Positions 4,361 to 50,460 of a stretch of DNA of 64,000 nucleotides are shown here, piece after piece. This stretch comes from a bacterium. GTDB lineage: Bacteria > Chlamydiota > Chlamydiia > Chlamydiales > SM23-39. Each line of letters starts with the position of its first letter. The first letter of the stretch is position 1. The position numbers and the translations under genes were made by a program. The DNA lies in assembly GCA_021780355.1 (NCBI GenBank), contig JAJXYX010000097.1, positions 1,594 through 65,593 on the forward strand. The letters run 5' to 3'. The notes beneath the pieces were generated by a model. It was given only the letters and a program-made list of their open reading frames with translations, was not told where the DNA came from and did not search any database.

Positions 4361-4415
4361 TTTTTATGAGACCTGTTTCGGTCAGTGGGCATTGAGGCTG
4401 AGAGATGATCCCAGT

Positions 4416-4571
4416 TTATCCTTTTCGTCTTTTGAAATATTGGATTTCTCTTTCATGCTTCACGGCTTCTTCACGCGTTTTGAATGTTCCAAGATTTCTC
4501 CTTTTTCCTGTTTCGGGATTCACGGAAAGAGAATAAATGCGATATGTGCCATCTTTTAATTTGCGGATCAT
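4416..4571 (-). CDS. Small basic protein, 51 aa (below ORF-track cutoff)
   Basis: Hand translation of the minus strand gives MIRKLKDGTYRIYSLSVNPETGKRRNLGTFKTREEAVKHEREIQYFKRRKG followed by TAA at 4418-4416. The composition is protein-like and basic, with no internal stop. The RBS is weak (GGA about 8 nt upstream). It overlaps antisense track ORFs that look spurious. No family assigned. Confidence 0.45.
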   Translation of the reverse strand: MIRKLKDGTYRIYSLSVNPETGKRRNLGTFKTREEAVKHEREIQYFKRRKG

Positions 4572-4587
4572 TTGTGTTCCGTTTATT

Positions 4588-4659
4588 TATACCGTTCGTG
4601 ACTCAAGAATCGGCTATTGGACGGCTTCAAAGCCGATTCTTGAGTCAGGAATGGGTATA
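4588..4659. repeat. Family-1 palindromic element (TATACC...GGTATA), internally deleted 72-bp copy
   Basis: TATACCGTTCGTGACTCAAGAATCGGCTATTGGACGGCTTCAAAGCCGATTCTTGAGTCAGGAATGGGTATA. GACTCAAGAATCGGCT pairs with AGCCGATTCTTGAGTC. The termini match those of the copies at 10331 and 21372. Confidence 0.9.
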
Positions 4660-4846
4660 TATAGAAAGTTTTTTTCTCTCTCATGCATCGCTTCGAAGAT
4701 TTTTTCACATTGCTTCAAGGAGATATTTTTTGCAACTTGAACTGTATGCAATATATCTTTAATGTGTATACCAAACAAAGCTGAAGAATCGGCTTATAGA
4801 CAGGTCCTTCAGCTTTCTTCGATATATCGACAACAATGAGAGGCTT

Positions 4847-5578
4847 ATGAGTTATCAAAGTACACTGTCATTTTGGAAAAAAAAATCTCTGAAAGATCTG
4901 TTGCCTCCTCCTGTGAAGGCGGAACACGGCGAATATTCGATGATCTTATCTGCCCGTGATTGTCCTGCTGTCTTGACGCCAGAGCTGCTTCAAGTGAGCT
5001 TGAAGGCGATAGAGTACGCTGCCAGTGTCGATTTGGGGGAGCTCCGAGAGAGGAATGAACAGGCAAAAAGGTATGCCGATCTTTGGCCTGGAGAGCATTA
5101 CCGTTTGTTGGCGGGGTTTATGCTTGCTTTGAAACCGAAAGTTGTGATTGAAATAGGAACTTCCACGGGGCTTTCGGCTTTATGTTTGAAGCGTTATTTG
5201 CCCTCTGATGGAAAAGTTGTGACGTTTGATATTGTGCCTTGGCAGCAGTATCCAGACACGCTATTTAAGCCAGAGGATTTTGACGACAAGCTCGTACAGC
5301 ATGTAGCTGATTTAAGCCTTGCATCCTCTATGGATTTTTATGCTTCTTCCATTCAAGAGGCTGGACTCATTTTTATCGACGCTTCCCACGACGGAGATTT
5401 GGAAGAGCGCCTTTTAGAAAACCTAAAAAAAATTCCGTTTTCTCACAAAGTATTTTGTGTGCTTGATGATATTCGCGTATGGACCATGCTAAGTATGTGG
5501 AGAAGTATCGAGCTACCCAAAATCGATTTGACGTCATTTGGCCATTGGTCTGGCAGCGGAGTGATAGAACTGCGCTAG
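4847..5578 (+). CDS. Class I SAM-dependent methyltransferase (O-methyltransferase/Methyltransf_24-like)
   Basis: 243 aa, with GAGAGG RBS 4-9 nt upstream of the ATG. Motif I is VVIEIGTSTGLSALCL, followed by an acidic residue after beta-2 (VVTFDI) and IFIDASHDGD, typical of small Rossmann-fold SAM methyltransferases. Confidence 0.7.
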   Translation: MSYQSTLSFWKKKSLKDLLPPPVKAEHGEYSMILSARDCPAVLTPELLQVSLKAIEYAASVDLGELRERNEQAKRYADLWPGEHYRLLAGFMLALKPKVVIEIGTSTGLSALCLKRYLPSDGKVVTFDIVPWQQYPDTLFKPEDFDDKLVQHVADLSLASSMDFYASSIQEAGLIFIDASHDGDLEERLLENLKKIPFSHKVFCVLDDIRVWTMLSMWRSIELPKIDLTSFGHWSGSGVIELR

Positions 5579-5608
5579 CGCCTTCTTGATAAGGTTTTTC
5601 ATTGCTTA

Positions 5609-6649
5609 TTAGGGTATGTCGATTTCGTAGAGATTGAGAGTAGCCTCTTTTGCTTTCATTGTTTTTTCCCAGATGACGTCTCCTTCAGACGTAAAAGTAA
5701 TGCCGCCAAATTGTGTAATGGCCATATGCCGTCCGTCGGAAGAAAAAGCTATCCCATGAGGGGTATGAAGTCTAGACTCTGGATTTTGGAGAGTTTGAAA
5801 AGGGGTGGTTTGTAGAATAAAGTTAGACTCCCGATCGAAAAGATAAAAGGTGACAGTATGTTGATCGCTGTTTGTGACGGCGCAACAGGTTTGATCGGGA
5901 GAGAACTTTACGTCCTCGGGACGGGATAGTTGTGTCCGTGGGCCTTCGATCATTTGATGGGGTTTTGAAGCAATCGTTTCATTTTCTATGGAGAAAATGC
6001 CTAGGCTGGGAGGTTCGGCAAATGTGGCGATGAGATGAGTCCCATCTGGAGTGAAAGCGATCCCTTTCGGAATGCCTGGCAGCTCTTCATTTTTCAACAG
6101 ACTTATGCAGGTAAAGCGGTTGTTTTCTTGTTTAAATAAAACGATCGCGCGCTCAAAATAGCTCGCTGCGCCATAACTGATAGCAAGATACTTTCCGCAA
6201 GGAGAAAACATCACTCCGTGGGGCTTGCAATGTTGAAGGATTTTTGGGGGAAGAGTGACAGCTATGGGCTTTTTTGAGAAAAGTCTATTGGAATTCCTCT
6301 GGTAAACATTCAACGTTTGGGTGAGCCAATTGGCTACAACGAGTTGGTTCCCATTCGGAGAAAAAGCTGCGTGTTGTGGCTGATCGAGCCTTGATGAAGG
6401 ATTGTGGAGCGTTTGGATGATTTTAAGTTGCCCTTCTTCTCCTATTTGATAGAGGGTAATTTTATTATTGTGAGTGTAGACAACGGCGCAAAGATTTTCT
6501 TTGGGATGGAAATCTACGCTATTGATCAAACTATAGGTAGAGGCGTCATTAGGAAGGACGATCAGCGGAATGGGAGCAACCAGAGCGCTGGCCGCTGAAA
6601 AGTGCATGAAAAAAAAGAATCCGATTCGTCTCATTTTAATCTGTCCCAT
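5609..6649 (-). CDS. Secreted beta-propeller repeat protein (lactonase-type 7-blade-like)
   Basis: 346 aa. The N-terminus has a signal peptide (RRIGFFFFMHFSAASALVAP); an alternative start at 6634 would remove the overlap with the upstream gene. Blade motifs recur: FSPNGNQLVVAN, FSPCGKYLAISY, FTPDGTHLIATF, FSPDQTCCAVTN, FSSDGRHMAITQ. Confidence 0.6.
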   Translation of the reverse strand: MGQIKMRRIGFFFFMHFSAASALVAPIPLIVLPNDASTYSLINSVDFHPKENLCAVVYTHNNKITLYQIGEEGQLKIIQTLHNPSSRLDQPQHAAFSPNGNQLVVANWLTQTLNVYQRNSNRLFSKKPIAVTLPPKILQHCKPHGVMFSPCGKYLAISYGAASYFERAIVLFKQENNRFTCISLLKNEELPGIPKGIAFTPDGTHLIATFAEPPSLGIFSIENETIASKPHQMIEGPRTQLSRPEDVKFSPDQTCCAVTNSDQHTVTFYLFDRESNFILQTTPFQTLQNPESRLHTPHGIAFSSDGRHMAITQFGGITFTSEGDVIWEKTMKAKEATLNLYEIDIP

Positions 6650-7508
6650 CGAGATCGTCTATGATCACTTCTTTTTCTTTTCCTGAAGAGTTAGATCTCG
6701 ATACTACGGGATATTGGGGTAGCGGTTGAATCTTGCCGCCTATGTTTTCTAATGCTTCTAGATCCAGCTTCTGTTCAGAAGGCAAGATATATCCTGTTTC
6801 AGTTAATTTACGATCGATTTCTCGAGCGTAGTATTTAATATAAGGAAACATCAAGACGGTCATATAGTTTATTAATTCTTTTTGCCTATCTCCGGAGTTG
6901 GGTTTATTGACAATCAATTCTACCTCTTTCCATCGGCTCGTCAGAAAATTAGGGACAATATTGGCAGGTAGGGAGTTGATGCCATTGAGAAAATTGGCAA
7001 AAAGAGAGGGGAGATTATTGTCTGGATCAGGTGTAGTGCAGATGCAGGCCATTTTGTAGAATTCTTCTAGAACTGCTTTAAACTTGATGAGATCGTTGAT
7101 GTTTTTTTTGTTTTTCTCTGCTGTTTGCAGTAATAGAGCGTGTTTTTCTTTATGCCAAGACAGCGCTTTGTAAGCACACGCTAAAAGCATGAGGGAAGCG
7201 ATAAAAACGACGCGAATAATGTTGTCAGACTCGGTTCTGCTCTTCCATTCTACCGCGGTATGAAGAGCAAAGCCGGCAATGATCGTTCCGAAGCCTCCAT
7301 GAGCAAACTGTGTGGCGAAAGTATTGTTAGCGAGAGAATTTGTGATGTTTTGTATGTCTTGAGCGATTTGGCCTTGCGCTTGCTCTGTGTTGGATCCAGT
7401 AGATACAAGCGTTTGAGCAACCTCTGTTGCGTCGCCGATGAAAGTAGCCAGCAAAGGAGGTTTTATGCGTGCGGGGGGAGATGAAGAGGACGGAACTGTT
7501 AACGACAT
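6636..7508 (-). CDS. Putative inclusion-membrane (Inc)-type protein, 290 aa
   Basis: I prefer ATG 7508 (GGGAGG RBS, 6-nt spacer) over the TTG 7568 used by the track. The N-terminus is Ser/Pro-rich (MSLTVPSSSSPPARIKPP). It is followed by a bilobed hydrophobic segment, FGTIIAGFALHTAV-EWKSRTESDN-IIRVVFIASLMLLACAY, then a long soluble C-terminus. No enzymatic motif recognised. Confidence 0.5.
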   Translation of the reverse strand: MSLTVPSSSSPPARIKPPLLATFIGDATEVAQTLVSTGSNTEQAQGQIAQDIQNITNSLANNTFATQFAHGGFGTIIAGFALHTAVEWKSRTESDNIIRVVFIASLMLLACAYKALSWHKEKHALLLQTAEKNKKNINDLIKFKAVLEEFYKMACICTTPDPDNNLPSLFANFLNGINSLPANIVPNFLTSRWKEVELIVNKPNSGDRQKELINYMTVLMFPYIKYYAREIDRKLTETGYILPSEQKLDLEALENIGGKIQPLPQYPVVSRSNSSGKEKEVIIDDLDGTD

Positions 7509-7571
7509 ATAAACCTCCCGTGTGGGGATTTTTAATAAAATATTAAAATTTATTTTATTTTTTTGCAATCG

Positions 7572-44884: not shown

Positions 44885-47611
44885 ATGAAACCAGACGCGA
44901 AAAAGAGTTTTCCTGGAGGATTTTTTTTAGTTCTCTTGGCGGCTATTTTGATCATTTTTGGCATTCAGACTTTTACTTCAAATCGAGAAGCGACAGTCTC
45001 TTTTAGCCATCAAGTTGAGCATTTGATCAACTTGGATTTGACGGTTCCTGAAGAAAATCGAAAAATTGCCCAAAATGAAAATTTGGTTACATTCAGCGGA
45101 AAATTCCGCACCCAGCTCGAATCCGACAGCATAGAGCGCTACCGCTATTTAGAGCTATTGCAAGAGCACCATACACTTTCCAGCGAAGCTGCTGGACTGA
45201 CTGCTGAATTAGATACTTTGCAGAAAAATGTGCGCGATGCGGCCGATTTGTTTCTTCATCTCACAGGCACTTCTTTGTCTCGCTCAGGTTATACAGTGGT
45301 GGGTGCGTCTTATGATACAATAGATAGAGATAGCTCGATTGTGATCAGACAACTGTCAGACTCGGATGTCGTTAGCTTGCCGCTAATCCAAAAAGCGTTT
45401 AGTTTGGCTCAAAGCCAGCCTACATTTGAGCATGTAGATGTCGTAGGAAAAGAGCTGAGGGAGTTTGTGTCCCAGCTTCGCTCTCCAGCTTTGGGGATTG
45501 GCAGTGAGGAAGCGAAAGGAAAGTTAAAAGCGCTCGATCGGACGCTGCAGCAAGCGGAAGGGCAAGAGCCTGAGAGTCAGCTCCGCGTATATCGCGATGT
45601 TATTTCTGAATTGACCACGTTTATGACTTTATTAGGCGCAGAGCAAGATGGCGTAAGACTGGGAGTTTTACGCAGCGTACGCGGCTACGTGGAAGAATTA
45701 AAGCAGTACGCGCAAGTGGAGCAGAATTTGGCGAAAAACACGGCGCTCCTCGATAAATCAAGACAAAAAGTCTCTTCGGTCATTTGGTATTTTAATAACC
45801 AAGAGCTCTCGACGAGAGCATTGGAAAAGCAAGATCCAGAAGTGTATGGCCACTGGTTCGCTTCTGCTCAGCAGGAGTGGAAGAGTTTTGAACAAAATAA
45901 GGGGCTTGCCTATCGGGCGCCTGATCAAGCTCGCAACACAGTATTGGAAAGAACATTTAAAAGCCAAGAGCCTTCTCCTAACTATTTTAGCTATCTTTTG
46001 ACTGTTTTGCCGCTGCTTTTAGTGGTGCTTTTTTTATACTTTGTGTTTTCCCGCCAAATGAAAGGCGTGGGTTCGTCTGCTATGAATTTTGGTAAATCGC
46101 CGGCAAAATTGATGACGAAAGAGACGAACAAAGTCACCTTTAAAGATGTGGCTGGCGCTGATGAGGCTAAAGAAGAGCTCACTGAAATCGTCGATTTTTT
46201 AAAAGATCCTTCCAAGTTCACAGCTCTCGGCGCCCGCATCCCTAAAGGGGTGCTTTTAGTAGGTCCTCCAGGAACGGGAAAGACCTTGATCGCAAAAGCT
46301 GTTGCCGGAGAAGCGGACCGCCCCTTTTTCTCGATTTCCGGTTCTGATTTTGTGGAAATGTTTGTGGGAGTCGGAGCTAGTCGCATTCGCGATATGTTCG
46401 ACCAAGCGAAGAAAAATGCTCCTTGCATCATCTTCATGGATGAGATCGACGCTGTCGGCCGTCATCGCGGCGCTGGCATCGGCGGAGGCCATGATGAGAG
46501 AGAGCAGACTTTAAACCAGCTTCTCGTTGAGATGGATGGATTCGACACGAAAGAGGGAGTGATTTTAGTCGCCGCAACGAACCGTCCCGATATTTTAGAC
46601 CGCGCTTTATTGCGCCCCGGCCGTTTTGACCGCCGCGTGACTCTCGATCTGCCTGACATTAAAGGGCGCTATGAAATTCTTAAAGTCCACGCTCGAAGAA
46701 TTAAAATCGATTCATCGGTCGACTTGATGGATGTGGCCCGTGCTACTCCTGGCAGTTCTGGGGCTGATTTAGAAAATGTGCTCAATGAGGCAGCTCTCCT
46801 TGCTGCGCGTAAGGGACGTTCGGCTGTGACATCTGTTGAAGTGAAAGAGGCTTGCGACAAGGTTCGCTATGGTAAAGAGCGGCGCAGTCTCGAGATGGAT
46901 GAAAAAGAGAAACTAACGACAGCGTATCACGAATCGGGGCACGCGATCGCAGGTCTCGTCGTTACGCACAGCGATCCAGTGGATAAAGTCACGATCATCC
47001 CTCGCGGTTTTTCTCTCGGCGCTACCCACTTCATGCCTCAGAAAAATCGCCTCAGCTATTGGAAAAAAGAAGTTTTAGACCGTCTCATCGTTCTCTTAGG
47101 AGGGCGAGCCGCTGAAGAGATCTTTGTTCAAGATATGTCTTCCGGCGCCCAGCATGACATTACCCAAGCGACCAAAATTGCCCGCGCGATGGTTTGCGAG
47201 TGGGGCATGAGCGATACGCTCGGCACCGTTTCCTATGACGAACAGACAGAGTCCGGTCAGTATCTCGGCATGCAAAATTACCGAGAAAAGAACTACTCCG
47301 ACGAGACGGCCCGAGCCATCGACAAGGAAGTTCGTACCCTCATCGACGAGGCTCACAAGCAAGCTCTCGACCTCCTCGAAAAGAATCGAGACAAAGTTCA
47401 GCTCATGACCGACATGCTCATGGAGTTTGAAACTCTCGACGCTACAGATGTCAAAGAAATCATGGACGGCACCTGGAACGCCGATATCAAGCGAGGTCGC
47501 CTCAAAGCTGCAGATGATCTCCAAATGAAATCTCCTCCGCCTCCACCCCCCGCACCCGCAGCAGCGCCTAGCGCTTCGAATGCAACTCCTCAGCCTGGAT
47601 TGAGCTCGTAA
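44885..47611 (+). CDS. ftsH: ATP-dependent zinc metalloprotease FtsH with extended periplasmic domain
   Basis: 908 aa with two TM segments flanking a ~330-aa periplasmic insert. The AAA module has GPPGTGKT and IIFMDEIDA. The zinc site is in YHESGHAI. The C-terminal tail is Pro/Ala-rich. Confidence 0.95.
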
Positions 47612-47672: not shown

Positions 47673-47688
47673 TGCTCTTTTTTTGATA

Positions 47689-47715
47689 ATCTTCCGAGAC
47701 GGAAGATTTATTTTT
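47689..47715 (+). terminator. Rho-independent terminator after ftsH
   Basis: ATCTTCCG-AGA-CGGAAGAT followed by TTATTTTT. Confidence 0.7.
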
Positions 47716-47740
47716 AGCGCTCGACACAGTTGAGTGCTAG
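47714..47740 (+). promoter_or_regulatory. CIRCE element (HrcA operator)
   Basis: TTAGCGCTC-GACACAGTT-GAGTGCTAG versus the consensus TTAGCACTC-N9-GAGTGCTAA gives 16/18 matches with the exact 9-nt spacer. It lies 78 nt upstream of the hsp20 ATG. Confidence 0.8.
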
Positions 47741-47817
47741 ACAAAAAACAGCCTTATTTTTATCATGGGTTTTGTTAGAAACAACGAAACCTGCCGGGGA
47801 CGGCAAAGGAGATCAAA

Positions 47818-48219
47818 ATGAAACGTGGTATGTTGCCTTTCTTTTTAGATGAAGTATTTGACGACTATCGAACAAGTCCCATATTGGCTGATATAAAAGC
47901 GGTGCAATCGGATGTGTCGATTTCTGAAGATGAAGACCGCCTTTATATTAGAGCTCATGTTCCGGGTGTTAAAATGGATCAGATCCATGTAACTTTTGAA
48001 AAAGGAGTTTTGTGGATTAAAGCTGAAGCTCAAGAAGAAGAAAAAGGGGAAAAGTATTTATGCAAAGTCAATAGCAGCTTTTCTTATCGAGTTCCTATTC
48101 CTGTCCGCGTGGACGAGCAAACGGTTCCGCAAGCTACTTGTAAAGATGGACTCTTAAAAGTAACTTTCTTAAAAAGTAAAGCTTCCCGCCCTGTGAAAAT
48201 CGCTATTAAAGAAGGGTGA
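47818..48219 (+). CDS. Small heat-shock protein (Hsp20/alpha-crystallin family)
   Basis: 133 aa with AAGGAG RBS. The alpha-crystallin domain reads DISEDEDRLYIRAHVPGVKMDQIHVTFEKGVLWIKAE...SFSYRVPIP...ATCKDGLLKVTFLK. Confidence 0.85.
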   Translation: MKRGMLPFFLDEVFDDYRTSPILADIKAVQSDVSISEDEDRLYIRAHVPGVKMDQIHVTFEKGVLWIKAEAQEEEKGEKYLCKVNSSFSYRVPIPVRVDEQTVPQATCKDGLLKVTFLKSKASRPVKIAIKEG

Positions 48220-48319: not shown

Positions 48320-50131
48320 TCAAGATCCCTTGGCAAAGCGGCCGAATTTGGGGTTGACGAGTGTAATCAAATCATGAGATTGCATGACGATCGACTCGGT
48401 GAGTAATCCGCAGTTGAAAGCAGCTCTTTCATGACTCACGATCTGCTCATCGAAATAAGTATCGAGGTTTAGCAGTTGCCCAAAAGGAGGGATGCCTCCA
48501 ATCTTGAGTCCATAGCGCTCTTCTAAGACGGCTGGATCTTCGAACTCACATTTTTCACCGACTGCTTCTGCAACGGCCTTCATGTCGAGTTTTAAATGAG
48601 AAGGAATATTGAATTGGTAGTTTTTCTTAGTCGACTTGCCTCGAAGAACTAACGCTTTAACCCCTTCTGCCATTGAAGTGCCTCGCACGCGAGCAGAATC
48701 TTCGGATGTTGGCGTCGCTTCGTGCTGCTGATGATCAAATGGCATCTTGTGCAAATGTAAAAGCCGGATGATCTCGTTGCGCACAGTTTCGGGGCCGAAA
48801 AAGAATTTAGCCTTAATCCGATTCCCTGCGATCCTTTTCGTATCGGAGGGGAAAAGCGAAGCTTCTCGAATATTTCTCAGTTTCAAAAGCGTCATCGTGA
48901 GCCTTTCAAGGCCCATCCCAAAGCCTCCATGCACCGGCATGCCGTATTCAAAAATGCTTAGATAATCAGGAAAGTTGGCCGGATCCATCTCTTTGCCGCG
49001 GATCCCTTCTAGCATCGAAGCATACGTATGTCGTCTTTGCCCGCCCGATGTAATCTCCGTGCCCGCGCAAAGTAAATCAAAGGTATTTGTCAGCGTAGGA
49101 TCTTCTTCTTTAGGATAAGCATAGAAAGGTCTCTTTTCTGCCTTCCAATCGGTAATAAAGACAAGATCTGTTCCCTTCTCTTCTCGCGCCCATGCACATA
49201 AATCTCTTTCAGCTGCAGGACTAAGATCAGGTTCTCCTTTTTCGTCAACTCCTGTTCTTTTAAAATACAGTTCCTGCGCCTCTTTAAACGTAAGCCGTGG
49301 AAAAGGGACATCTTTTGGCGCCAAAACAATCTTTCCGCCTAGTACATCAATTTCCGCCTGAGCATGCTGATGAAGGTATTCTAAAATGAACTTAACGCAG
49401 CCTTCTTGAATATCTAAAATCTCATGCCAGTGGGTAAAAAATCCCATTTCAAATTCAAACTGTTTCCCTTCTGATAAGTGTCTTGTCGTCTGGGAAGGTT
49501 CCGCTCTAAAAAAAGGCATCAGCGCAAAGACCCTCTCATTCACTCCAACCATAATCTGTTTATACAGCTGGCTGCTTTGGGCCAATGTCGCTGTATATCC
49601 AAAATAATCGACATTAAAAAATTCCGCTCCCCCTTCCGAAGAAGCTCCAATGATATTGGGCGCAAAATACTCCACTGCCTGCACATGATCATGCATATAC
49701 AAACGGTAAGCATGAACAATTTCCGCCTGAATTCTAAACACCGCCGCCAGCTCTCTATTCCTAAGCGAAATCGGCCGATGATCCAAAATCACTTCTAAAT
49801 CGCTTCTAATCTGAGGTTTATAATATTCAATCGGAGGCACTGCATGAATAGGATTTTCCACTTCAATTAAAGCGTCGACAATTTCCATCCCTTGATTTGC
49901 TTCTCTCGACTCAATCACCTTGCCTTTCACAGACAAAATCGAACCGGGCTGCAAATTCTCTATCTTTTTGCACTCTTCCTTATCTTCCACCACAATCTGC
50001 ATAAATCCAGATCGGTCGCGTACAATTAAAAAGGTAAGTTTACCAAATGAGCGAGTCGTATTCAGCCAACCTTTCACTAGCACAGGTTGACCTACATGTT
50101 GAGACAATTGTCGAGCTAAAATTCTTTGCAT
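48320..50131 (-). CDS. aspS: Archaeal/eukaryal-type (type 2) aspartyl-tRNA synthetase fused to a C-terminal YbaK/ProX-like aminoacyl-tRNA deacylase domain
   Basis: The start is set at MQRILARQL (50131). The 43 upstream in-frame codons of the track ORF are translated repeat sequence. The protein has an OB-fold anticodon domain (VLVKGWLNTTRSFGKLTFLIVRDRSGFMQIVV), QSSQLYKQ (the AspRS QSPQ-type motif), motif 2 FRAEPSQTTRHLSEGKQFEFEM and motif 3 GGFGMGLERLTMTLL, with no GAD insertion. The last ~165 aa (GVKALVLRGKSTKK...GLKIGGIPPFG...AAFNCGLL) look like a YbaK-family domain. Confidence 0.8.
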   Translation of the reverse strand: MQRILARQLSQHVGQPVLVKGWLNTTRSFGKLTFLIVRDRSGFMQIVVEDKEECKKIENLQPGSILSVKGKVIESREANQGMEIVDALIEVENPIHAVPPIEYYKPQIRSDLEVILDHRPISLRNRELAAVFRIQAEIVHAYRLYMHDHVQAVEYFAPNIIGASSEGGAEFFNVDYFGYTATLAQSSQLYKQIMVGVNERVFALMPFFRAEPSQTTRHLSEGKQFEFEMGFFTHWHEILDIQEGCVKFILEYLHQHAQAEIDVLGGKIVLAPKDVPFPRLTFKEAQELYFKRTGVDEKGEPDLSPAAERDLCAWAREEKGTDLVFITDWKAEKRPFYAYPKEEDPTLTNTFDLLCAGTEITSGGQRRHTYASMLEGIRGKEMDPANFPDYLSIFEYGMPVHGGFGMGLERLTMTLLKLRNIREASLFPSDTKRIAGNRIKAKFFFGPETVRNEIIRLLHLHKMPFDHQQHEATPTSEDSARVRGTSMAEGVKALVLRGKSTKKNYQFNIPSHLKLDMKAVAEAVGEKCEFEDPAVLEERYGLKIGGIPPFGQLLNLDTYFDEQIVSHERAAFNCGLLTESIVMQSHDLITLVNPKFGRFAKGS

Positions 50132-50154: not shown

Positions 50155-50460
50155 TTGGGGCCCTGCCCCAAACCCCGCCAAAGGACTTCGTCCTTTGGAA
50201 TCCTGAGTTTGTTGAGGGATTATAGCACGATGGGATTTTCTTGACTGTTAGTTTATGCAAGACTTCGTCTTGTATAAACTAAAAAAATAAGCAGATTTCA
50301 AAGAACTTCGCCTTGAAATTCTGAATTTGTTAAGGGATCATGGCATGAGGGGATTTTCTTAACTATTAGTTTATGCAAGACTCCGTCTTGCATAAACTAA
50401 AAAAAACAAATAGGATTCCAAAGGACGAAGTCCTTTGGCGGGGCATGGGGCAGCGCCCCA
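50155..50460. repeat. Family-2 element (subtype c), expanded copy with 2 x 120-bp internal tandem duplication
   Basis: The arms are TTGGGGCCCTGCCCCAAACCCCGCCAAAGGACTTCGTCCTTTGG and CCAAAGGACGAAGTCCTTTGGCGGGGCATGGGGCAGCGCCCC. Internal units start at 50179, 50299 and 50419 (CAAAGGAC / CAAAGAAC / CAAAGGAC), giving a 120-bp period. Each unit carries GGGATTTTCTT(G/A)ACT(G/A)TTAGTTTATGCAAGAC-TYCG-TCTTG(T/C)ATAAACTAAAAAAA. Confidence 0.85.
50219..50227 (-). promoter_or_regulatory. Extended -10 box (TGCTATAAT) inside the expanded repeat, facing aspS
   Basis: The minus strand reads CGTGCTATAATCCC. No good -35 is present. A transcript from here would start about 85-90 nt upstream of the aspS ATG. The second repeat unit has a degenerate version (TGCCATGAT). 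Confidence 0.3.

Follow-up and report, generated by a model that had tools for sequence, protein, structure and literature searches.

Deacylases of the YbaK type are treated in reviews as free-standing proteins that deal mainly with the errors of prolyl-tRNA synthetase (ProRS), and aspartyl-tRNA synthetase (AspRS) is treated as an enzyme that needs no proofreading. A 2024 review counts seven editing families of aminoacyl-tRNA synthetase (ARS), AspRS excluded, and calls the members of the INS superfamily, YbaK among them, single-domain proteins. All characterised members use a conserved lysine and a Gly-XXX-Pro (GXXXP) loop, according to the paper describing the superfamily, and YbaK, which has no tRNA specificity of its own, acquires one within a complex with ProRS and tRNAPro. 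Only two kinds of INS domain have been described as covalently attached to a synthetase, where they edit its own errors: the INS domain of ProRS, which lies between motifs 2 and 3, and the ProXp-ala domain of protist fusions, which is N-terminal to ProRS. Here we describe a gene in which an INS-superfamily domain is C-terminal to AspRS. It lies on the minus strand at 48320-50131 of a 64,000-nucleotide stretch (the window) of contig JAJXYX010000097.1, from a bacterium of the Chlamydiales (assembly GCA_021780355.1). The deacylase clade to which its C-terminal domain belongs is AspRS-associated in many but not all lineages, either fused or as the next gene; its fusion to three AspRS backbones, its operon adjacency and AspRS as its exclusive partner argue that the clade is functionally tied to AspRS.

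The gene is a single unbroken open reading frame (ORF) with an ATG at 50131 and a stop at 48320-48322, in agreement with the span given by the first-pass annotation, a reading made from the letters of the window. The mechanical ORF reaches a TTG at 50260, but homologues begin at MQR/MxR, and the TTG start is therefore a mechanical artefact. The parts of the gene are as follows.

48320..50131, minus strand: the whole gene (603 aa plus stop), a type-2 AspRS fused at its C-terminus to an INS-superfamily editing domain
49880..50083, minus strand: OB-fold anticodon-binding domain, residues 17-84 (Pfam PF01336, tRNA_anti-codon)
48842..49795, minus strand: class IIb catalytic core, residues 113-430; motifs 1-3 and QSSQLYKQ are present, a GAD insertion is absent (PF00152, NF003483)
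48734..48841, minus strand: conserved linker, residues 431-466 (SD.KRIAGNRIKA.FFG...), 74% mean pairwise identity, with invariant columns in the alignment
48338..48733, minus strand: YbaK/ProX-fold editing domain, residues 467-598 (PF04073, structure model, Foldseek)
48656..48658, minus strand: codon for K492 (GVKAL), which aligns with the catalytic Lys of the INS superfamily (alignment to E. coli YbaK 'YKTLLV')
48485..48499, minus strand: GXXXP loop G545-G-I-P-P549, which aligns with GGISP of E. coli YbaK
48683..48724, minus strand: clade signature H470-x4-T475-S476-x3-A480-x2-R483, at least 80% conserved in 129 representatives

The fusion is not an artefact, because the ORF is continuous and its three-domain architecture is conserved. 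An assembly error or frameshift joining two genes, which the first-pass annotation had placed near 48830 if it existed, is ruled out: there is no stop or frameshift there. The architecture recurs across clusters and genomes. All three Pfam domains were found in all of the best 120 protein clusters (73-100% identity, about 600 aa) of at least 120 clusters, and the named clusters are 'aspartate--tRNA(Asn) ligase' from metagenome-assembled genomes (MAGs) of Chlamydiales or Parachlamydiales. When one genome per GTDB species was scanned, 161 genomes had a relative of the query, and all 80 of the loci listed from these span the query from residue 1-3 to 599-603. Most of the listed loci are labelled Chlamydiota (Parachlamydiaceae, Rhabdochlamydiaceae, Simkania), with a few Verrucomicrobia or Legionella MAG labels, and three are complete or near-complete chromosomes; the taxon labels were taken from the MAG records, and errors of binning or naming seem to lie behind a few of them (Verrucomicrobia, Legionella, 'Chlamydia trachomatis' MAGs). 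Among 119 chlamydial homologues the catalytic core has a mean pairwise identity of 84%, the linker and the editing domain 74% each, and the OB domain 61%. The comparison of 74% with 61% suggests that purifying selection on the editing domain is at least as strong as on the OB domain. No second aspS, asnS, gatCAB, proS or tRNA genes were found within the 64-kb window, and no second aspS or asnS was found within ±10 kb of 80 chlamydial aspS genes (one locus, L060, gave a weak class II match only). In one related database entry, P0007 (736 aa), an ENA gene call places an S1 domain (PF00575) and the AspRS-editing protein in one polypeptide; the probable cause is a gene call that ran on or a rearrangement in that contig, because an S1-ending pnp lies directly upstream on the same strand in the window.

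The first-pass annotation had seen a compact class IIb AspRS without GAD in the N-terminal part, and profile searches agree. The tRNA-synt_2 domain (PF00152) matches residues 113-430 at 1e-66, and GAD (PF02938) has no Pfam match in the 603-aa protein. Among NCBIfam models, the 'aspartate--tRNA(Asn) ligase' equivalog NF003483 is passed over residues 1-434 (446.4 bits against a cut-off of 353) and TIGR00458 is narrowly missed (359.6 against 368.4). The top solved relative of residues 1-434 is AspRS2 of Thermus thermophilus (1n9w; 3kfu in the transamidosome) at 5e-95, an enzyme that is likewise a compact type-2 AspRS without GAD and is described as non-discriminating, but has no C-terminal domain. 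In alignments to 1n9w and 3nel, N24 and N79 stand at the positions of W26 and K85 of Thermococcus kodakarensis AspRS. That Trp and Lys are said to enforce discrimination in the T. kodakarensis enzyme. As judged from sequence, the synthetase part is a working, archaeal-like type-2 AspRS, probably of the non-discriminating kind. The linker is 36 aa long; in a full-length AlphaFold2 (AF2) model the C-terminal domain starts with a helix at residues 447-460, and residues 420-445, including the N-terminal part of the linker, have low confidence (pLDDT).

The C-terminal domain was described in the first-pass annotation as YbaK-like, on motifs (GVKALVLRGK, GLKIGGIPPFG, AAFNCG) that, like the QSSQLYKQ of the synthetase, are all found in the translation. 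The family and the fold stand. The tRNA_edit profile PF04073 matches residues 470-590 over its full length (1.6e-17, 64.1 bits against a gathering score of 25.5), and an AF2 model of the domain built from a 31-sequence alignment has a pLDDT of 95.8 and a predicted template-modeling score (pTM) of 0.90. In a Foldseek search of the PDB, 37 chains matched at E<=1e-3 with 15-26% identity, almost all of them of the YbaK/ProX fold or ProRS INS domains; two matches are larger proteins, SadB (9qzk) and Maqu_0641 (3mem). The main structural relatives and their template-modeling (TM) scores are these.

H. influenzae YbaK (1dbu): TM 0.78-0.83
T. thermophilus ProX (2cx5, 2z0k): TM 0.81-0.85
E. coli YbaK (2dxa): TM about 0.8
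APE2540 (1wdv): TM about 0.8
Atu3699 (1vki): TM about 0.8
lpg1207 (3op6): TM about 0.8
ProRS INS domains (several PDB entries): TM 0.67-0.71

Identity with YbaK proper is ruled out by the equivalog cut-offs: TIGR00011 scores 57 bits against 153.25 and NF007951 37 against 243, so the protein should not be filed as YbaK. The domain resembles YbaK (1dbu, 2dxa; TM 0.78-0.83) in that the fold is the same, the catalytic Lys and the GXXXP loop align, and YbaK too is a one-domain deacylase that obtains its tRNA specificity by association with a class II synthetase. It differs in sequence (23-26% identity), in a signature of its own (H470, T475-S476, R483, FN[AC]G) and in its partner, which is ProRS for YbaK and a covalently joined AspRS here. 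ProXp-x/TTHA1699 (2cx5, 2z0k) and the uncharacterised lpg1207 of Legionella pneumophila (3op6) show comparable structural similarity at 18-22% identity. The best profile match (54 bits) is lpg1207, which shares the PPFGNL and FNAG motifs, but where the clade has Thr-Pro-Thr-Ser, lpg1207 has Thr-Ala and TTHA1699 Thr-Arg-Thr-Ala, and both are without R483. Neither has a known link to AspRS; ProXp-x acts on 2-aminobutyrate (Abu)- and Ala-tRNAs.

Conservation within the clade bears on whether the domain is active. K492 and G545-P549 are invariant in the 119 chlamydial homologues and essentially invariant in 107 homologues from DPANN archaea (K492 is kept in 106 of the 107). The clade pattern reads H..TS..A..VRG / GxKA / GxxPPFG / FN[AC]G..T.S. 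Among 129 near-full-length representatives, residues conserved in at least 80% are H470, T475, S476, A480, R483, G490, K492 and G545, and further P548-P549-F550-G551, D561, F572, G575, S580 and D587; the H470/T475/S476/A480/R483 signature is invariant in the chlamydial set and essentially so in the DPANN set. R483 is clade-specific, since at its position E. coli YbaK has Leu, TTHA1699 has Val and lpg1207 has Ala. That the Lys and the GXXXP loop are strictly retained across Chlamydiota and DPANN, along with some ten other polar positions, argues for an active hydrolase rather than a remnant or a pure binding module, and the domain is predicted to be a catalytically competent aminoacyl-tRNA deacylase. 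We infer that it hydrolyses aminoacyl-tRNA and acts on the products of AspRS.

The association with AspRS extends well beyond Chlamydiota. Residues 441-603 were compared exhaustively with 1.84 billion cluster representatives by HMMER; of the 988 matches, 249 fell below 1e-10, and the long matches are all AspRS fusions, on three backbones.

Type-2 AspRS fusions: the window protein, P0122, P0128, P0129
Fusions to bacterial-type AspRS without GAD: P0134, P0142
Fusions to bacterial-type AspRS with GAD: P0170, P0177, P0199, P0204

With P0204 as the query, clusters that combine AspRS, GAD and tRNA_edit were recovered; they number more than 100, are about 744 aa long, and those that are named belong to Candidatus Woesearchaeota or Nanoarchaeota. 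Records of the candidate phyla radiation (CPR)/Patescibacteria type include at least one fusion (P0219, KKU91974) and one free-standing member (P0131). Free-standing proteins with the signature are also encoded 0-90 nt downstream of aspS, or overlapping it, in six independent metagenomic loci.

L081/L082: aspS of bacterial type ends at 7997, editing gene starts at 8001
L083: aspS of GAD-less bacterial type at 6602-8008, editing gene at 8001-8468, overlapping aspS
L084: aspS fragmented, editing gene directly downstream
L086: type-2 aspS at 4381-5685, editing gene at 5774-6235
L117: aspS present, editing gene directly downstream
L138: aspS present, editing gene directly downstream

A metagenome scan of 80 loci gave 57 type-2 AspRS fusions, two loci with aspS directly adjacent, 14 free-standing genes without an adjacent aspS and six with upstream DNA too short to judge; the remaining locus, L091, was called adjacent by the script but is probably a fusion with a frameshift. 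All ten synthetase partners tested match AspRS models above cut-off, which rules out AsnRS as the partner; the separate gene in L083 alone is an AsnRS. A sister clade without the TS...VRG motif (P0175, P0417) is not next to aspS and is seen near proS. In a neighbour-joining tree, which is crude, the fused and free-standing forms interleave, suggesting that fusion and fission have happened repeatedly rather than in one ancestral event.

Several of these loci and entries have features of their own. At L083, aspS, the editing gene, a DUF5665 gene and a true asnS (6602-10244) form an apparent operon, and at L150 (1757-5728), which is among the 14 loci without an adjacent aspS, asnS and a type-2 aspS lie on the opposite strand about 860 nt upstream of the editing gene. 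Two DPANN-type contigs (L167, 12737-14235; L168, 13005-14241) carry gatC, a peptidyl-prolyl isomerase gene and a gatA-like amidase gene; this group is 4.5-5 kb downstream of the fused AspRS-editing gene, which has a translin-family gene immediately upstream. P0197 (448 aa) and P0234 (491 aa) appear to carry three tandem copies of editing-domain relatives, and P0239 (336 aa) is an editing domain with a C-terminal extension that is acetyltransferase-like by eye. JGI labels free-standing members of 145-200 aa (P0394, P0396, P0407, P0409 and others) as 'nondiscriminating aspartyl-tRNA synthetase', which looks like annotation transfer from the fusions; other free-standing members go under the names 'Cys-tRNA(Pro) deacylase' or 'Ala-tRNA(Pro) deacylase'.

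The pattern of partners bears directly on the possibility that the domain is a general trans-editing factor riding on AspRS: it would clear Ala- or Cys-tRNAPro, or Ser/Thr-tRNAs, and the fusion would serve co-expression or provide a tRNA-rich scaffold. The nearest characterised homologues are YbaK and ProXp-x, the free-standing members of the clade on mostly marine contigs work without aspS linkage, an INS-less ProRS (ProRS-C_1 domain) is encoded 5 kb from the aspS/editing gene pair in L081, and MCP3 of Trypanosoma brucei, an INS member, occurs in a complex with both ProRS and AspRS. However, the linkage is repeatedly and exclusively to aspS, never to proS, on three independent backbones; the YbaK equivalog models are missed; and the clade that does occur near proS is the sister clade without the signature. 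We consider this explanation distinctly improbable. A non-catalytic role, in which the YbaK fold would bind the tRNA acceptor end without hydrolysis and either raise tRNA affinity or hold Asp-tRNAAsn, in a complex resembling a transamidosome, for hand-off to GatCAB, could account for gatC and gatA near the DPANN fusions, and the domains appended to ProXp-ala variants enhance tRNA binding. The type-2 backbone also lacks GAD, an insertion that reportedly contacts GatCAB in bacterial transamidosomes (as in the Pseudomonas aeruginosa structure 4wj3). But the domain is borne by GAD-containing AspRS as well, and a binding module would have no need of the Lys, the whole GXXXP loop and about ten clade-specific polar residues that are strictly conserved across distant lineages; a non-catalytic role is very unlikely. 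Both explanations, though conceivable, fit the data less well.

The general mechanism that we favour, with a confidence somewhat above even, is an AspRS with a tethered post-transfer editing module. In the window protein the editing-fold domain is covalently attached and conserved in the lineage, as in a cis-editing synthetase. By analogy with YbaK and ProRS, the synthetase would bind the tRNA, and the tethered editing site would sample the 3′ end after aminoacyl transfer; the conserved Lys and the GXXXP loop would position the ester, and the wrong product would be hydrolysed. Association with AspRS would supply the tRNA specificity that is missing from a bare YbaK-fold domain. The idea of quality control on Asp-tRNA, raised tentatively in the first-pass annotation, gains weight because the same clade is fused or operon-adjacent to three AspRS backbones. 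First among the candidate substrates is tRNAAsp or tRNAAsn charged with the wrong group, for instance D-Asp or an analogue of aspartate; second is Asp on an unwanted tRNA, such as surplus Asp-tRNAAsn. A bolder version, to which we give slightly less than an even chance, is that AspRS is an eighth editing family in host-dependent lineages (non-Chlamydiaceae Chlamydiota, DPANN archaea and CPR bacteria), where this INS clade, fused or operon-coupled, would hydrolyse a specific AspRS error product: D-Asp-tRNAAsp, an aspartate-analogue-tRNAAsp or Asp-tRNAAsn.

Five points weigh against tethered editing of AspRS products. First, we know of no documented amino-acid misactivation problem of AspRS that would need editing. 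Second, the characterised relatives all act on mischarged tRNAPro or on Ser-, Thr- or Abu-tRNAs, not on Asp-tRNA. Third, the full-length AF2 model is poor (pLDDT 64, pTM 0.40) and so gives no geometric support for the tRNA 3′ end reaching the editing site, although this is probably due to the shallow alignment (72-95% identity). Fourth, the 14 free-standing signature proteins, mostly on marine contigs, have no aspS in the flanks available and have varied neighbours, and the clade can thus work without genetic linkage to AspRS. Fifth, gatC and gatA near the DPANN genes and asnS in the L083 operon mean that no single Asp/Asn-pathway logic covers all cases.

One specific proposal is that the domain clears, by hydrolysis, the Asp-tRNAAsn that a relaxed (non-discriminating) AspRS produces. 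In lineages where AsnRS supplies Asn-tRNAAsn this would make the enzyme effectively discriminating, and where GatCAB is present it would trim Asp-tRNAAsn that escapes transamidation. The first-pass annotation had framed the fusion around a non-discriminating AspRS plus GatCAB; that framing is now one of several readings, the linked lineages showing either gatC/gatA or asnS. An AsnRS is encoded in the genome of the parachlamydial Protochlamydia amoebophila (PMC2490706), and asnS accompanies aspS and the editing gene at L083 and lies beside aspS at L150. The match to NF003483, the non-discriminating T. thermophilus AspRS2 as nearest solved relative, and N24/N79 in place of the Trp and Lys said to enforce discrimination in T. 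kodakarensis all fit a relaxed synthetase. However, asnS adjacency is confined to those two loci, the bacterial-type partners match a generic aspartate--tRNA ligase model, and the DPANN fusion contigs with gatC and a gatA-like gene presumably need Asp-tRNAAsn, which would make its hydrolysis futile. In addition, EF-Tu already rejects Asp-tRNAAsn. Clearance of Asp-tRNAAsn as the specific function therefore seems to us quite unlikely.

The most specific form of tethered editing is chiral or analogue proofreading, the removal of D-Asp, beta-hydroxyaspartate or cysteine sulfinate from tRNAAsp or tRNAAsn in lineages that scavenge host amino acids and may lack other deacylases. This would fit all three AspRS backbones regardless of the route to Asn, and the carriers that can be named are genome-reduced and host-dependent (Chlamydiota, Woesearchaeota/Nanoarchaeota and at least two CPR/Patescibacteria entries). 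AspRS reportedly charges D-Asp, a product that D-aminoacyl-tRNA deacylase (DTD) is said normally to clear; the literature yielded nothing on DTD distribution in Chlamydiae. YbaK and ProXp-x lack R483 and the Thr-Ser pair, and these residues could be ligands for a side-chain carboxylate, but placing R483, T475 and S476 in the pocket is speculation, and to our knowledge no INS-superfamily member is a chiral checkpoint. Taken as the specific function, chiral or analogue proofreading is unlikely.

The fusion proteins are already public and annotated simply as aspartate--tRNA ligase, and that AspRS carries no known editing domain, as the first-pass annotation had said, agrees with the count in the 2024 review. 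We found no description of an AspRS-YbaK fusion or of an AspRS-linked INS member in the full-text literature, and an AspRS-dedicated clade of INS deacylases appears to be undescribed. Of the INS clusters without an assigned function (ProXp-7, -8 and -9), ProXp-7 is the trypanosome MCP3 group, and the present clade may match ProXp-8 or -9. Repeated joining of the clade to AspRS, on three backbones and in archaea as well as bacteria, points to an uncharacterised selective pressure on the quality of AspRS products, and an eighth editing family, if real, would expose an AspRS fidelity problem so far overlooked. The identity of the substrate would define a new specificity in the INS superfamily, clarify the accuracy of Asp and Asn codons in organisms with a non-discriminating AspRS, and correct the database annotation of the free-standing members.

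The window itself is an ordinary piece of chlamydial chromosome. Around the fused gene lie ftsH, an hsp20-family gene, pnp and rpsO; the rest of the window includes ribonucleotide reductase, htrA, lptFG, prfA, ffh and a leucine-rich repeat (LRR)/IpaH-like effector. The intergenic region between pnp and aspS (50156-50460) is a composite repeat: inverted arms of 49 nt (50156-50204 and 50412-50460, 94% complementary) flank two 93-nt direct repeats that are 118 nt apart and 87% identical, and within each direct repeat a 16-bp hairpin, perfect or nearly so, stands beside an A7/T7 run. The hairpin motif was not found elsewhere in the window or in 168 fetched loci. The repeat may represent a small insertion element, or else a regulatory structure lying upstream of aspS. 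An Rfam scan around the gene gave nothing at the gathering score, including no T-box or known leader, and only meaningless miRNA-like matches for 50156-50460.

Other observations concern genes apart from aspS. Between ftsH and the hsp20-family gene, at 47679-47827 on the plus strand, there is a sub-threshold match to the Moco/tungsten riboswitch RF01055 (29.5 bits against 36, E=3e-4); it lies just upstream of the small heat-shock gene (47818-48219), overlaps a terminator-like hairpin (47688-47708), and is probably a chance match or the terminator structure. The FtsH protein (44885-47611, plus strand, 908 aa) has an N-terminal extension of about 380 aa before its transmembrane/AAA+ region and a Pro/Ala-rich C-terminal tail. 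At 13490-15835 on the minus strand, a 781-aa protein has a D-Ala-D-Ala ligase module at its N-terminus (about residues 8-350), with the remaining 430 or so residues uncovered by NCBIfam models among the matches listed; this order is the reverse of that in the chlamydial MurC-Ddl model NF011171, which is matched through its Ddl half only. At 34801-36639 on the minus strand, a protein of 612 aa combines XopAC/XopL-like leucine-rich repeats with a C-terminal novel E3 ubiquitin-ligase domain of the IpaH/SspH2/SlrP type (about residues 385-560), and is a candidate type III effector.

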